Part shown: piece by piece, positions 2,791 to 21,131 of the stretch | Layout of the letters: every line of letters starts with the position of its first letter | Position numbering within the stretch: the stretch's first letter is position 1 | Source: a virus | Taxonomy: Duplodnaviria; Heunggongvirae; Uroviricota; Caudoviricetes | Virus record (IMG/VR): IMGVR_UViG_2548876943_000002 | Span: 1-28,906 of that record | DNA: 28,906 nucleotides | Reading direction: 5' to 3' (one strand) | Position numbers and translations under genes: made by a program | Notes under the pieces: generated by a model | Seen by the model: the letters and a program-made list of their open reading frames with translations, nothing else | The model's database searches: none | Told to the model about the DNA's origin: nothing

Positions 2791-3114
2791 ATGAAGATGC
2801 CAGAAAAACATGACCTGTTAGCCGCCATTCTCGCGGCAAAGGAACAAGGCATCGGGGCAATCCTTGCGTTTGCAATGGCGTACCTTCGCGGCAGGTATAA
2901 TGGCGGTGCGTTTACAAAAACAGTAATCGACGCAACGATGTGCGCCATTATCGCCTGGTTCATTCGTGACCTTCTCGACTTCGCCGGACTAAGTAGCAAT
3001 CTCGCTTATATAACGAGCGTGTTCATCGGCTACATCGGTACTGACTCGATTGGTTCGCTTATCAAACGCTTCGCTGCTAAAAAAGCCGGAGTAGAAGATG
3101 GTGGAAATCAATAA
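2791..3114 (+). CDS. S: Class I holin S with dual-start motif (Met1-Lys2-Met3)
   Basis: Protein is nearly identical to lambda S as recalled ([39 protein letters not shown]...). Upstream CCCCTTATTGGGGGG hairpin and TAAGACATGAAGATG match the lambda sdi region. Confidence 0.9.
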
Positions 3115-3574
3115 TCAACGTAAGGCGTTCCTCGATATGCTGGCGTGGTCAGAGGGAACTGATAACGGACGGCAGAAAACCAGAAATCATGGTTATGACG
3201 TCATTGTAGGGGGAGAGCTATTCACTGATTACTCCGATCACCCTCGCAAACTTGTCACGCTAAACCCCAAACTCAAATCAACAGCAGCCGGACGTTACCA
3301 GATTCTTTCCCGTTGGTGGGATGCCTACCGCAAGCAACTTGGCCTGAAAGACTTCTCTCCGAAAAGCCAGGACGCTGTGGCACTGCAACAGATTAAAGAG
3401 CGTGGCGCTTTACTGATGATTGATCGCGGTGATATTCGTCAGGCTATCGACCGTTGCAGCAATATCTGGGCTTCACTGCCTGGCGCTGGTTATGGTCAGT
3501 TCGAGCATAAGGCTGACAGCCTGATTGCAAAATTCAAAGAGGCTGGCGGAACGGTCAGAGAGATTGATGTATGA
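3098..3574 (+). CDS. R: Endolysin R (lytic transglycosylase)
   Basis: 158 aa, near-identical to lambda R as recalled ([49 protein letters not shown]...). Confidence 0.9.
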
Positions 3575-4038
3575 GCAGAGTCACCGCGATTATCTCCGCT
3601 CTGGTTATCTGCATCATCGTCTGCCTGTCATGGGCGGTTAATCATTACCGTGATAACGCCATGACCTACAAAGAGCAGCGAGATAAAAAAATCAGTGAGC
3701 TGAAGCAGGCGACCGCCACCATTACTGACATGCAGCAGCGCCAGCGTTCTGCTGATGCACTCGATGCTAAATACACGAAGGAGTTAGCTGATGCGAAAGC
3801 TGAAAATGATGCTCTTCGGCGCAAGCTTGATAATGGTGGTCGGGTGTTCGTCAAAGGAAAATGCCATATGCCATCCTCAGCCGAAACCTCCAGCGCCTCC
3901 GGCATGGGCAATGATGCCACCGTCGAACTCTCTCCAGTTGCTGGACGAAACGTTCTCGGTATCCGGGACGGAATCATCAGCGACCAAACAGCACTGAGAA
4001 CGCTTCAGGAATACATCAGGACGCAATGCCTTCGATGA
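3571..4038 (+). CDS. Rz: Spanin inner-membrane subunit Rz
   Basis: N-terminal TM ([16 protein letters not shown]), coiled-coil middle, lambda-Rz-like N-terminal half, divergent C-terminus. Confidence 0.85.
3791..3997 (+). CDS. Rz1: Spanin outer-membrane lipoprotein Rz1, embedded in the +1 frame of Rz
   Basis: Signal peptide with lipobox (LIMVVGCSS), proline-rich mature region ([16 protein letters not shown]), entirely inside Rz in a different frame. Confidence 0.8.
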
Positions 4039-4212
4039 TAGCGATAATTTTACTCATCATCCTTCACATCTGGCTCTGTAGACAGGGTGGTGATCACTTC
4101 TGGAGTGAATCCAGATTAAACATCTCATTGCTGATGCTTGATATTGAGCATCTTGCGCGCGGTAAGGGGCTGCGTTGAGATAAGAGCCAGTCATCACAAA
4201 CACCAGGATTTA

Positions 4213-4236
4213 GCCTCGCATTCGCGGGGCTTTTTA
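4213..4236 (+). terminator. Intrinsic terminator-like hairpin (GCCTCGC-ATTC-GCGGGGC then TTTTT)
   Basis: GC-rich stem with T-run read from sequence, about 175 nt downstream of Rz. Confidence 0.45.
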
Positions 4237-4256
4237 TTGCAACAAAGGTAAAGACG

Positions 4257-4544
4257 ATGGATGAAGAATATCGTAAAGACCTGCAACTGTGGTTTGGTCT
4301 TACGCATGCGCCGTTCTGCGTGATGCCGCGAGTATTCATGGAGGCTATGCCGCCAGAATGGCAAGAGAAGATGGCTCAGTTGCTTTTTGAGTATAGCGAC
4401 ACAATAAAAACGGATGTCTGCGGAGTTCACAGCTGTTTTGTTACTGCCAAAGACGGCAACAACCGCTTTATGAGGATGCCAGAAGATATTCTGAACTATC
4501 GTCATCCCCGACGTGAATTCATCGAATCATTTCTGAAGAAGTAG
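4257..4544 (+). CDS. Hypothetical phage protein (95 aa)
   Basis: ORF between lysis and packaging modules. Overlapping antisense ORFs rejected. No family recognised. Confidence 0.5.
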   Translation: MDEEYRKDLQLWFGLTHAPFCVMPRVFMEAMPPEWQEKMAQLLFEYSDTIKTDVCGVHSCFVTAKDGNNRFMRMPEDILNYRHPRREFIESFLKK

Positions 4545-4769
4545 CCATGACAAAGCCCATCTACGGGTGGGCTTGATAATGAAACCGGAATTTATTCTTG
4601 GCAACCAGTTACGGCAGTACCACGAAGCAACCCAAGCCAGTAAGTGGGGAAATAACACTGGCAGCCACTGAAAGATGAACCTCCTGCCTTATGGCAAAAA
4701 AGATTCTTTGTGGTGGCGGACTGATGGAAAGACATCCTAATCAAGCAACCACTCCACAGGGTCATAATT

Positions 4770-5126
4770 ATGAACGACCAGCAAATCGAAAAAGAAATCG
4801 TTGAGAAAGGCAAAACCGCTCCGCGAGTTACGCCTCAATATATCGAAAGCATCATTCTTGAAGAGCATTTCTTTACTGCTTATGACGGCATTCGTGCCGC
4901 CAATATGGGCGTTGGCGATTCATGGACAGCGCATAAATCTACAGACCTCCTGACTTTCTGCGTACTGGTGCTGAAGAATGGCTTCACCGTCACCGGAGAG
5001 AGTGCCTGTGCAAGCCCGGAAAACTTTGATGCAGAAATTGGTCGGAAGATTGCCCGGCAGAATGCTGTAAACAAAATCTGGATGCTCGAAGGTTACTTGC
5101 TGAAGCAGAAGCTAAGCGAACAGTAG
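4770..5126 (+). CDS. Hypothetical phage protein (118 aa), possibly N4 Gp49/Sf6 gene 66-family
   Basis: Position immediately upstream of the terminase genes in an Sf6-like module. The family assignment is from memory and not verified. Confidence 0.5.
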   Translation: MNDQQIEKEIVEKGKTAPRVTPQYIESIILEEHFFTAYDGIRAANMGVGDSWTAHKSTDLLTFCVLVLKNGFTVTGESACASPENFDAEIGRKIARQNAVNKIWMLEGYLLKQKLSEQ

Positions 5127-5229
5127 TTATTACAAAAGCCATTCCCTACAGAGTGGCTTTGATAATGGCTTATACCCTACACGGGATAACTTAACTGATA
5201 TCCCTTTTAACGGATAAACGGAGCCAATA

Positions 5230-5472
5230 ATGGCAGAGATTATTCCCATGACTGAAGAACAGAAATTCCAGTTAGAGATTTACAAACTGGTCATGAACCA
5301 GAACGCAGCCGCAGAAGAAGCATTTCAATTCATTGGCACTGACGAGCTGAAGCTTGAGCTATTCAAGATTCACTTCCAGTCAGGTGGCGCTAATTCAGAT
5401 ATCACGACCCGCACTATCGAAGCGGTGCGTAAATCGAAGGAAGCGTTAGACCTGTTCACCACCGGAGCATAA
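5230..5472 (+). CDS. Hypothetical small acidic phage protein (80 aa)
   Basis: ORF with RBS-like AACGGAG upstream, directly preceding terS with a 2-nt gap. Confidence 0.5.
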   Translation: MAEIIPMTEEQKFQLEIYKLVMNQNAAAEEAFQFIGTDELKLELFKIHFQSGGANSDITTRTIEAVRKSKEALDLFTTGA

Positions 5473-5474
5473 AC

Positions 5475-5915
5475 ATGGCGCGCCCAACAAAGTATCAAGA
5501 GGCGTACGCCGAACAGGCACGCAAACTGTGCTTGCTGGGCTACACCGATGCAGAGCTTGCTGATTTCTTCGAAGTCAGTGAGTCAACTATTAACAAGTGG
5601 AAGCTTGATTATCCTGAGTTTTCGGAGTCCATAAAAAAGGGTAAGGCCGTTGCTGATGCAGAAGTTAGTGATCGTCTTTATCAACGCGCTATGGGCTTCG
5701 TGGCTCCAGACATCGATATTCGTGTTATTGAAAACAGAATTGTCGAAACTCCGCTTGAGAAGTATTACCCGCCTGATACAACCGCCGCCATCTTCTGGCT
5801 TAAGAACCGACAGAAGGATAAATGGCGCGACAAGGTTGATCACGAGCTAACAGGCAAAGACGGCGGCGCAATTCAGATTGAAACATCACCGATGAGCACT
5901 CTATTCGGAAAATGA
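5475..5915 (+). CDS. terS: Terminase small subunit
   Basis: 146 aa. N-terminal HTH-like segment (YAEQARKLCLLGYTDAELADFFEVSESTINKW) typical of TerS. Directly upstream of terL with start/stop overlap. Confidence 0.8.
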   Translation: MARPTKYQEAYAEQARKLCLLGYTDAELADFFEVSESTINKWKLDYPEFSESIKKGKAVADAEVSDRLYQRAMGFVAPDIDIRVIENRIVETPLEKYYPPDTTAAIFWLKNRQKDKWRDKVDHELTGKDGGAIQIETSPMSTLFGK

Positions 5916-7324
5916 CCTCGATTAATCCTATCTTTGAACCGTTCATTGAGGCGCATCGCTATAAAGTCGCCAAAGGCGGTCGAGGTAGCGGTAAGTCATG
6001 GGCAATCGCGAGGCTGCTTGTTGAGGCGGCGCGTCGGCAGCCGGTGCGAATCCTCTGTGCTCGTGAACTGCAAAACAGTATCAGCGATTCGGTAATCCGG
6101 TTGCTTGAAGACACCATAGAGCGGGAAGGGTATTCGTCTGAGTTTGAAATTCAGCGTTCCATGATTCGTCATCTCGGAACGAATGCTGAGTTCATGTTCT
6201 ACGGCATCAAAAACAACCCGACGAAGATTAAATCGCTCGAAGGCATTGATATCTGCTGGGTGGAAGAAGCGGAAGCGGTAACGAAGGAATCATGGGATAT
6301 CCTGATACCAACCATCCGCAAGCCGTTTTCCGAAATATGGGTGAGCTTCAACCCTAAGAACATCCTCGACGATACCTATCAGCGATTCGTTGTAAATCCT
6401 CCCGATGATATTTGTCTGCTGACGGTGAACTACACCGACAATCCGCACTTTCCTGAAGTTCTCCGTCTGGAGATGGAAGAGTGTAAACGCAGAAATCCGA
6501 CACTGTATCGTCACATCTGGCTTGGTGAGCCAGTAAGCGCAAGTGATATGGCAATCATCAAACGTGAATGGCTTGAAGCCGCAACCGATGCGCACAAGAA
6601 ACTCGGATGGAAAGCGAAAGGCGCTGTTGTCTCTGCGCATGATCCATCAGATACAGGGCCAGATGCTAAAGGTTATGCATCGCGTCACGGTTCGGTAGTT
6701 AAGCGCATTGCCGAAGGTCTGCTGATGGACATCAACGAGGGGGCTGACTGGGCTACTTCGCTGGCGATTGAAGACGGTGCTGACCACTACTTGTGGGATG
6801 GTGATGGTGTCGGTGCAGGGCTACGCAGACAGACAACGGAAGCGTTCTCCGGTAAGAAAATCACCGCCACGATGTTCAAGGGCAGCGAATCGCCATTTGA
6901 TGAAGATGCACCATATCAGGCTGGAGCATGGGCTGATGAAGTCGTGCAGGGCGACAACGTTCGCACTATTGGCGATGTGTTCCGCAATAAGCGAGCGCAA
7001 TTCTATTACGCGCTGGCTGACAGGTTGTATCTGACATATCGGGCGGTTGTCCACGGTGAGTATGCAGACCCCGACGACATGCTGAGCTTCGACAAAGAAG
7101 CGATAGGCGAGAATATGCTGGAGAAGCTGTTTGCAGAACTGACGCAGATTCAGCGCAAATTCAATAACAACGGGAAGCTGGAGCTTATGACTAAGGTCGA
7201 AATGAAGCAGAAGCTCGGTATTCCATCTCCTAACCTGGCTGATGCGCTGATGATGTGTATGCATTGCCCGGCATTGGTCCGCGAAGAAACTGAAATATAC
7301 GTTCCCTCATCCTCCGGTTGGTAA
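5912..7324 (+). CDS. terL: Terminase large subunit (ATPase/nuclease)
   Basis: 470 aa, the same length as Sf6 gp2 as recalled. Walker A-like KGGRGSGKSWA near the N-terminus and acidic nuclease-domain motifs. Confidence 0.9.
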   Translation: MTSINPIFEPFIEAHRYKVAKGGRGSGKSWAIARLLVEAARRQPVRILCARELQNSISDSVIRLLEDTIEREGYSSEFEIQRSMIRHLGTNAEFMFYGIKNNPTKIKSLEGIDICWVEEAEAVTKESWDILIPTIRKPFSEIWVSFNPKNILDDTYQRFVVNPPDDICLLTVNYTDNPHFPEVLRLEMEECKRRNPTLYRHIWLGEPVSASDMAIIKREWLEAATDAHKKLGWKAKGAVVSAHDPSDTGPDAKGYASRHGSVVKRIAEGLLMDINEGADWATSLAIEDGADHYLWDGDGVGAGLRRQTTEAFSGKKITATMFKGSESPFDEDAPYQAGAWADEVVQGDNVRTIGDVFRNKRAQFYYALADRLYLTYRAVVHGEYADPDDMLSFDKEAIGENMLEKLFAELTQIQRKFNNNGKLELMTKVEMKQKLGIPSPNLADALMMCMHCPALVREETEIYVPSSSGW

Positions 7325-21063: not shown

Positions 21064-21131
21064 AGTGGAAGCCCCAACTGCGGGAACAGTCAGGGCTTCG
21101 GTTGTCAGTAAATCCGTGGAGAAAAACCAAC
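21064..21131 (-). ncRNA. sar: Expected location of sar-like antisense RNA (arc-ant intercistronic region); inferred by position only
   Basis: In P22 a small antisense RNA (sar) is transcribed leftward across the ant RBS. Here the arc-ant spacer contains an imperfect hairpin (GAAGCCC...GGGCTTC). Exact ends not determinable. Confidence 0.3.

Follow-up and report, generated by a model that had tools for sequence, protein, structure and literature searches.

A conserved stem-loop at accessory-gene boundaries between the lysis and terminase genes of P22-like and related phages

What is the role of a hairpin that recurs directly after two small genes in the late operon of a phage? The question is raised by positions 1 to 28,906 of the IMG/VR record IMGVR_UViG_2548876943_000002 (hereafter "the window", the whole 28,906-nucleotide (nt) stretch that was analyzed), which is a P22-like prophage (Lederbergvirus; Sf6/HK620/CUS-3 type). 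Both hairpins lie on the plus strand in the late operon, downstream of Rz (3571-4038) and upstream of the small terminase gene (5475-5915), with copy 1 at 4546-4581 and copy 2 at 5126-5169. An earlier reading of the letters alone, the original prediction, had proposed that they bound small accessory genes as a shared element, and this proved correct: both are members of one structured family, recognized by fold, covariance model and covariation. The family is a selected, strand-specific stem-loop that favors the sense strand, and it is confined to the lysis-terminase interval of P22-like, HK97/HK022-like and Shiga toxin (Stx) phages and of many Enterobacterales prophages. On balance, it probably folds as RNA between cistrons of the late transcript and doubles as a conserved linker where accessory cassettes recombine.

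Two copies of one fold

The repeated sequence stands exactly where it was first reported, with CTACGGGTGGGCTTGATAATG at 4561-4581, 17 nt past the TAG (4542-4544) of a 95-amino-acid (aa) open reading frame (ORF), and CTACAGAGTGGCTTTGATAATGG at 5146-5168, 20 nt past the TAG (5124-5126) of a 118-aa ORF. The similarity is longer than first noted and runs for about 45 nt from the stop codon (AGTAG..AT.ACAAAGCC...CTAC.G.GTGG.CTTGATAATG). Local alignment of the two copies scores 20, compared with a mean of 8.0 (standard deviation 1.6, maximum 19) for 5000 random pairs of 81-nt segments drawn from the window. The short words GGCTTGATAATG, with up to two mismatches, were found six times in the window against 3.2 expected, which is not above chance; significance emerges only when the full 45-nt alignment and the hairpin are considered, not the words alone.

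Both copies share an extended fold, made of an outer stem (CAUUA/UAAUG), a 2x2 internal loop (CA/GA), an inner stem of 9-10 base pairs (bp) and a short loop. The original prediction spoke of a hairpin plus GATAATG; the repeat and the hairpins are there, but given the shared fold GATAATG is no separate motif: it forms the 3' side of the outer stem and pairs with CATTA(C)A on the 5' side. Hairpin 1 begins 1 nt past the stop codon of the 95-aa ORF and pairs C4546-A4550 with T4577-G4581, followed inward by the internal loop CA (4551-4552)/GA (4575-4576), the inner stem (4553-4561 with 4566-4574) and the loop UACG (4562-4565). Hairpin 2 overlaps the final base of the stop codon of the gp49-like gene, the 118-aa ORF, and pairs 5126/5127-5132 with 5163-5169 around the internal loop CA (5133-5134)/GA (5161-5162), the inner stem (5135-5144 with 5151-5160) and the loop CCUACA (5145-5150). 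The inner stems hold 4-6 G-C pairs, and the predicted folding energies are -18.2 kcal/mol (z -2.9) for hairpin 1 and -20.6 kcal/mol (z -4.9) for hairpin 2. The predicted layouts are 8+2+10 positions in copy 2 and 7+2+9 in copy 1 of Sf6; copy 1 of the window is predicted as 3 outer pairs, a 4-nt internal loop and 9 inner pairs, its outer stem being weakened by a mismatched G4549, which is T in relatives. This T4549-to-G change is unique to the window, as it occurs in 0 of the 144 other hairpin instances (145 in total); besides breaking one outer-stem pair of hairpin 1, it makes an ATG that opens a 9-codon ORF.

When 33 distinct hairpins were used to build a covariance model for the family, this model returned exactly two matches in the window, at 58.6 bits (4544-4583) and 57.9 bits, with the next best at 11.6 bits. 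The model thereby rejected a third related copy that had been claimed, and which really lies at 5175-5185, one position off. The inverted repeat said to follow it, GGGATA-N10-TATCCC, is real and equally displaced by one position (5183-5204), and it forms a separate weak hairpin outside the family. With the TTTT that follows (5183-5208, plus strand), this hairpin has a folding energy of -8.3 kcal/mol (z -2.1) and was not flagged by a terminator scan. Its changes among relatives are one-sided only and mostly wobble-compatible, and it is absent in two loci (L016 and L025). It travels with hairpin 2 into Stx phages, where the homology of the window with an Stx2a phage ends at about 5218. Elsewhere in the window, an AAGCC...GGCTT palindrome at 21069-21098 gave no match to the covariance model.

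Small ORFs opened by the ATG of GATAATG were considered as well and rejected, their reading frames not being conserved: a 30-aa ORF (4579-4671) is shortened to ATGAAACCGTGA in Sf6 and HK620, and a 9-aa ORF at 5165 has lost its ATG in locus L015. Some phage records annotate such frames. P22 orf25 (L092, 1830-1907) and Dewey CDS0073 (L009, 1542-1634) start at the ATG inside the hairpin 3' arm, and Dewey CDS0074 (L009, 1654-1761) starts in the conserved block that follows hairpin 1 and reads through the second hairpin. All three look like over-annotation because the frames are unconserved in relatives.

Covariation and strand specificity

Covariation was counted over 37 distinct sequences and 15 pairs, giving 555 cells. 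Overall, 97.8% of the cells were paired, compared with 36-52% in slid-register controls, and changes on both sides were seen at 9 of the 15 pairs. The covariation score was 0.522 against 0.245 after shuffling, a value that none of 500 shuffles reached. The sequence of the inner stem varies freely while its pairing is kept, the loop ranges from 3 to 6 nt, the A/U-rich outer stem measures 5-8 bp, and ATTACA and GATAAT are (nearly) invariant across the family. For example, the hairpin 2 allele of phages that lack the gp49-like gene, GUUAUUG-CA-GAGACCA...UGGUCUC-GA-CAAUGGC, differs from the window copy by four compensatory pair changes. Similarly, one pair occurs as A-U in epsilon34-like phages, as G.U in HK620-like phages (the form common among the sampled IMG/VR loci) and as G-C in P22. 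Scanning viral contigs with a pattern that leaves out the two common alleles recovered 64 further loci with new inner stems, including GCAGCCC/GGGCUGC, GCAGGCA/UGCCUGY, GGAGCCA and GGAGCCC. In the internal loop, C8, A9 and G36 are invariant in both alignments (A1 and A3), and A37 is invariant in A3 and 97% conserved in A1; thus, this loop never turns complementary. The hairpin 1 copy of HK97 (L173, 1362-1401; HK97 38661-38700) has two broken inner-stem pairs and scores 41.6 bits, compared with about 60, and may be decaying.

The structure is also specific to one strand. A conserved U.G wobble in the inner stem is present in 35 of the 37 sequences, and G.U accounts for 76 of the 555 cells (13.7%), each of which would become A.C on the opposite strand. 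At the two hairpin sites, the covariance model gives 58 bits for the sense strand but 9-12 bits for the antisense strand, and the predicted folds weaken on the antisense strand from -18.2 to -12.2 kcal/mol for hairpin 1 and from -20.6 to -13.9 kcal/mol for hairpin 2. The hairpin is always co-oriented with the flanking genes.

To judge from Rfam, the phage records examined and the literature searched, the element is unannotated and undescribed; intercistronic stem-loops and boundary sequences as such are familiar. Rfam (release 15) gave no match at E <= 1 on either strand of window positions 3500-6000, and the hairpin is unannotated in the phage records examined. We found no description of it in the literature on boundary sequences, P22-like mosaicism, DUF2560, prophage anti-small-RNAs (anti-sRNAs), lambda late-operon sRNAs, and the P22 and BTP1 transcriptomes; the prophage anti-sRNAs AgvB and AsxR lie at the PR' moron site and not at the hairpin interval.

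Mosaic joints, distribution and gene order

The motifs coincide with the boundaries of variable cassettes in related phages, as judged by breakpoints in 91 related loci compared with the window and by flank classes. Homology with the window sets in at 4538-4551 in 55 loci and breaks off at 4581-4589 in 27. It returns at 4604-4614 in 50 loci and is lost once more at 4736-4741 in 55, to reappear at 5129-5132 in 11 loci and at 5159-5164 in 46. Each hairpin is thus an island of conservation, with mosaic joints at both of its feet. The place before hairpin 1 is taken in different phages by the 95-aa gene, Rha, KilA-N with hkbL, a GIY-YIG gene, an HNH endonuclease or a gene labelled "anti-CRISPR", or is empty; the flanks of 219 instances fall into 38 upstream and 33 downstream classes. 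A single 36-nt hairpin sequence, identical in 13 loci, stands next to eight unrelated upstream and nine unrelated downstream classes. Hybrid hairpins, which join a copy-1 stem to the sequence downstream of copy 2, occur in L037, L071 and the Stx2c phage 2851, and are the expected product of a crossover between copies 1 and 2 that deletes the sequence between them. The equivalent spot in P22 is the published insertion site of the moron pid (PMC3573128), which is inserted about 8 nt downstream of the P22 hairpin.

Carriers of the hairpin include P22, Sf6, HK620, epsilon34, HK97, mEpX1, Stx phages and prophages of many Enterobacterales, with one or two copies per genome. The covariance model found two copies in the whole genome of Sf6 (AF547987, 37833-37872 and 38497-38540). 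HK97 also has two (NC_002167, 38661-38700 and 38856-38896), the scanned lysis-terminase region of P22 has one (NC_002371, 40309-40349), and a single copy was seen in the parts of Stx2a and Stx2c phages that were covered; no copy was found in the 36 kb scanned of the DLP12 and Qin prophage regions of K-12. A scan of one genome per species returned 13 matches, 11 of which fold as family members. These come from Atlantibacter, Citrobacter, Enterobacter, Kluyvera, Raoultella, Pantoea, Serratia, Enterobacillus, Apirhabdus and two metagenome-assembled genomes (unclassified Enterobacteriaceae; one labelled Advenella), spanning at least 10 host genera. The other two matches, from Xenorhabdus, do not fold and were discarded as chance.

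Wherever the neighbors are recognizable, Rz lies 560-1800 nt upstream of the hairpin and the small and large terminase genes (terS/terL) lie downstream, on the same strand. In 148 of 203 instances, an upstream ORF of 40 aa or more has its end near the hairpin, with a median gap of 2 nt past the stop codon, and the distance from the hairpin to the next start codon ranges from -3 to 258 nt. A variant with the inner stem GCAGCCC/GGGCTGC lies inside the late operon exactly 21 nt upstream of the terS (phrog_370) start in 39 contigs, namely L095 (3541-3578) and 38 other IMG/VR loci; this spacing hints at a link to packaging-gene expression. The arrangement of window positions 4040-5480 was recovered at no less than 80% coverage in 3 of 5426 complete E. 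coli genomes and in parts in 2737, a rarity of the full arrangement that illustrates extreme mosaicism.

Within this interval of the window, a gene-65-like ORF (4026-4178) precedes a canonical intrinsic terminator on the plus strand (4212-4235), which consists of an 8-bp G+C stem followed by TTTTTATT, has a folding energy of -14.1 kcal/mol (z -3.7) and was flagged by the terminator scan. The homologous site is labelled "Rho-independent terminator" in the epsilon34 record, and the mEpX1 record annotates a Rho-independent terminator after Rz at the same relative position. The 95-aa ORF (4257-4544, plus strand), which has no Pfam match, makes up the variable cassette that precedes hairpin 1. A variable linker (4584-4610) then separates this hairpin from a block of about 125 nt (4611-4736, plus strand) that is common to P22, HK97-like and Stx phages. 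Among 50 distinct sequences of P22-like, HK97-like and Stx phages, the block is almost unchanged, with few variable sites, which lack codon periodicity, and one indel in an A-run; it looks non-coding and could belong, together with the hairpins, to a longer structured RNA. The gp49-like cassette (4737-5125) is a presence/absence unit upstream of hairpin 2, and its 118-aa gene (4770-5126, plus strand) belongs to the Phage_gp49_66 family (PF13876; Pfam E 1.7e-34). Downstream of hairpin 2, and past the weak hairpin at 5183-5208, which is the only terminator-like feature near the flanking accessory genes, the conserved DUF2560 gene (5230-5472, plus strand; E 1.1e-43; Sf6 gene 67, HK620 hkbM, P22 orf80) leads to the small terminase gene. 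In BTP1, a P22-like prophage, the lysis genes are transcribed together with the structural genes, in one large polycistronic operon (PMC7067206).

Two phage records add further observations on this interval. In the record of phage Huey (L004, 1421-1921 and 2156-2536), the gp49-like gene and the cassette before hairpin 1 are both labelled "anti-CRISPR protein", an unconfirmed label; for the window's homologue of the gp49-like gene, Pfam gives only Phage_gp49_66. In phage SEN22 (L010, 285-1432), the same interval after Rz contains an inserted, disrupted transposase element flanked by a duplicated piece of the gene-65 region, so that window positions 4049-4055 are matched twice.

Candidate roles and comparison with known systems

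What, then, might the hairpin do? We propose that it would fold in the late polycistronic mRNA and act post-transcriptionally as intercistronic punctuation, either as an RNase III-type processing site or as a barrier to 3' exonucleases and ribosomes. Such a barrier would decide what becomes of the upstream accessory cistron as compared with the packaging genes. Its place so close behind a stop codon points to control of the 3' end of the cistron that stops there, and the irregular duplex of about 20 positions with its invariant internal loop suggests an RNase III-type processing site. The hairpin would also serve as a linker, because an island of about 40 nt is near-identical between otherwise unrelated sequences and could offer short homology for the exchange or deletion of accessory cassettes. 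We infer that the element works as a folded RNA molecule, and that recombination uses rather than merely spares it. Among the "regulatory, terminator or recombination" roles first suggested, the sequence evidence thus appears to favor an RNA-level element of the sense strand that doubles as a recombination linker, and the terminator part finds no support, as neither hairpin has a U-tract and the terminator scan is silent at both.

Several points weigh against this proposal. The molecular function is read from letters and predicted folds, and the structure was derived from the same sequences that were used for testing it. Many of these sequences are close relatives, so the counts over 555 cells overstate the number of independent events. 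Since G.T pairs are tolerated in single-stranded DNA (ssDNA), the sense strand could also act in that form. The clustering of breakpoints at the feet could reflect selection against disrupted hairpins and not recombination there. The element is dispensable in some relatives, as L025 has no copy next to the DUF2560 gene, and P22 and epsilon34 have no copy 1. Finally, the likeness of the hairpins to RNase III sites and to the repetitive extragenic palindromes (REPs) discussed below is a presumed analogy.

Much of the same evidence could be accommodated by a structure-dependent recombination site in DNA, with the hairpin extruded in ssDNA during replication or recombination. In that form a nuclease or recombinase would act on it, or it would make the replication machinery switch templates, and it would thereby generate cassette exchange as integron attC sites do. 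The conserved feet around a covarying stem of free sequence, the position right past the stop codon of each cassette, the joints exactly at both feet, the identical hairpins between unrelated flanks and the hybrids would all agree with such a site. We nevertheless consider it unlikely: no recombinase is consistently linked to the hairpin, whose neighboring genes differ widely; the feet read CATTACA/GATAATG and not the R''/R' boxes of attC, and the symmetric 2x2 loop lacks extrahelical bases; joints fall at either foot and not at one fixed crossover point; and the one or two copies per genome keep to one interval, in an orientation fixed with transcription. In addition, the copy-1 loop is usually UACG closed by C-G, which would be an RNA-specific type of stable tetraloop. 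The bolder version, in which the hairpins are a phage counterpart of attC that an enzyme of phage or host recognizes in folded single-stranded form, strikes us as quite improbable; if true, the hairpins would actively drive the shuffling of accessory cassettes between the lysis and terminase genes of enterobacterial temperate phages instead of being passive RNA elements spared by selection. A site in duplex DNA, whether an operator for a dimeric regulator (such as the nearby Rha or KilA-N) or an unusual promoter, is very unlikely, although the inverted-repeat layout, the regulator-like genes that often adjoin and the likeness of the (nearly) invariant hexamers ATTACA and GATAAT to -35 and -10 boxes would suit it. 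The hexamers are 22-26 nt apart, too far for sigma-70, which requires a spacer of 16-19 nt, and a sigma-70 promoter composed of them was rejected for this spacing. The half-sites are invariantly asymmetric, CA and GA never being complementary, and the adjoining regulators vary or are absent. The free change of the inner stem with its pairing kept, and its share of G.U cells, are unexpected for protein-DNA recognition. A promoter-like match on the minus strand (4604-4576) was no better than chance would give, and the variable linker contains its -35.

Could the hairpins instead be transcription terminators that close independently transcribed moron units and shield the packaging genes from read-through in the lysogen? 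They do stand just where moron-like accessory genes end (PMC3573128 for the P22 site), their stem-loops are stable and G+C-rich at -18.2 and -20.6 kcal/mol, and a second hairpin with TTTT lies 14 nt past hairpin 2. However, no U-tract follows either hairpin, the next sequence being GAUAAUGAAACC or GAUAAUGGCUUAUACC (GAUAAUGGCUUAUA), and the scan that flagged the true terminator at 4212-4235 flagged neither of them, so a terminator role is unsupported. A scan for plus-strand promoter-like sites, from which separate units could be transcribed, found none in 3000-6500, and in 39 contigs the hairpin stands just before terS, inside the late operon. We therefore hold this role to be improbable. That the repeat has no function, as a neutral leftover of a local duplication or a chance similarity, is hardly credible. 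The short words of the motif are indeed not above chance, and the repeat list of the window holds many near-repeats of 12-17 nt and like quality. The covariation and distribution data already contradict this explanation: 9 pairs show compensatory changes, and the hairpin is conserved across at least 10 host genera, several phage families and unrelated flanks. The alignment score of the two copies also lies far above that of random pairs.

The proposed intercistronic RNA stem-loop that doubles as a linker bears on a long-standing debate, namely whether the sharp mosaic joints of lambdoid phages arise by homologous recombination at conserved linkers or by random illegitimate joins filtered by selection. 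The hairpin provides a concrete and widespread test case for this question, present in P22, Sf6, HK620, HK97 and Stx phages, with parts of the region in about half of the complete E. coli genomes. Here, an island of about 40 nt under structural selection turns up repeatedly between unrelated accessory genes, in some cases without a single base change. The element is, in addition, a candidate cis-acting RNA of the late operon, just before the packaging genes and beside moron genes, which are often important for host phenotype. Both its linker and its RNA aspects are directly testable by standard phage genetics and RNA end mapping.

Among known RNA elements, the hairpins appear to resemble the REPs of E. 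coli and Salmonella, imperfect palindromes of about 35-40 nt that lie past stop codons or between cistrons and fold in mRNA. REPs stabilize upstream mRNA, and those that lie no more than about 15 nt from a stop codon lower the translation of the gene before them. The hairpin sequence differs, showing by eye no likeness to the REP consensus, and in place of hundreds of dispersed copies there are one or two per phage genome in one interval: two in the 28.9-kb window, two in Sf6 and none in the 36 kb of DLP12 and Qin regions scanned. We know of no link between the hairpins and a transposase of the REP-associated (RAYT) type. The RNase III sites of T7 (R1.1 type) offer another possible analogy, being irregular intercistronic hairpins of about two helical turns with an internal loop in a long phage transcript. 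The hairpins are likewise predicted to form an irregular duplex of about 20 bp with an internal loop, as in the 8+2+10 positions of copy 2. The T7 sites are longer and have asymmetric loops; the likeness is one of predicted fold, and to our knowledge there is no sequence relationship.

The attC sites of integrons share with the hairpins conserved feet, a variable pairing interior and a place at the 3' end of each mobile gene cassette. The hairpins differ in lacking the R'' (RYYYAAC) and R' (GTTRRRY) cores, in having near-invariant feet, (C)ATTACA and GATAATG, in lacking extrahelical bases and in showing joints at both feet. An IntI-type integrase is not among the neighbors identified (Rz, Rha, KilA-N, terS and unknowns), no search aimed at IntI having been made.

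The cassettes themselves recall the moron units of lambdoid phages, reportedly described by Juhala et al. 2000. The genes bounded by the hairpins are accessory genes of the presence/absence kind inserted in the late operon, as is P22 pid (PMC3573128), and both the 95-aa and the gp49-like gene are such insertions between conserved neighbors. The hairpin differs from the parts of a moron in being neither its promoter nor its canonical terminator. The closest parallel concerns the boundary sequences ("bsq"), or linker sequences, of lambdoid phages, which Clark et al. 2001 (HK620) and Casjens et al. 2004 (Sf6) are said to have described. These are short conserved sequences between non-homologous segments, proposed to guide the homologous exchange of modules, and the hairpins behave exactly so, each being a short conserved island with unrelated sequence on both sides. 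Two differences set them apart. The six bsq misc_features of Sf6 (bsq2-bsq7) overlap neither of its hairpins (37833-37872 and 38497-38540), and the hairpins are structured, covarying and strand-specific, not merely a conserved stretch of DNA.

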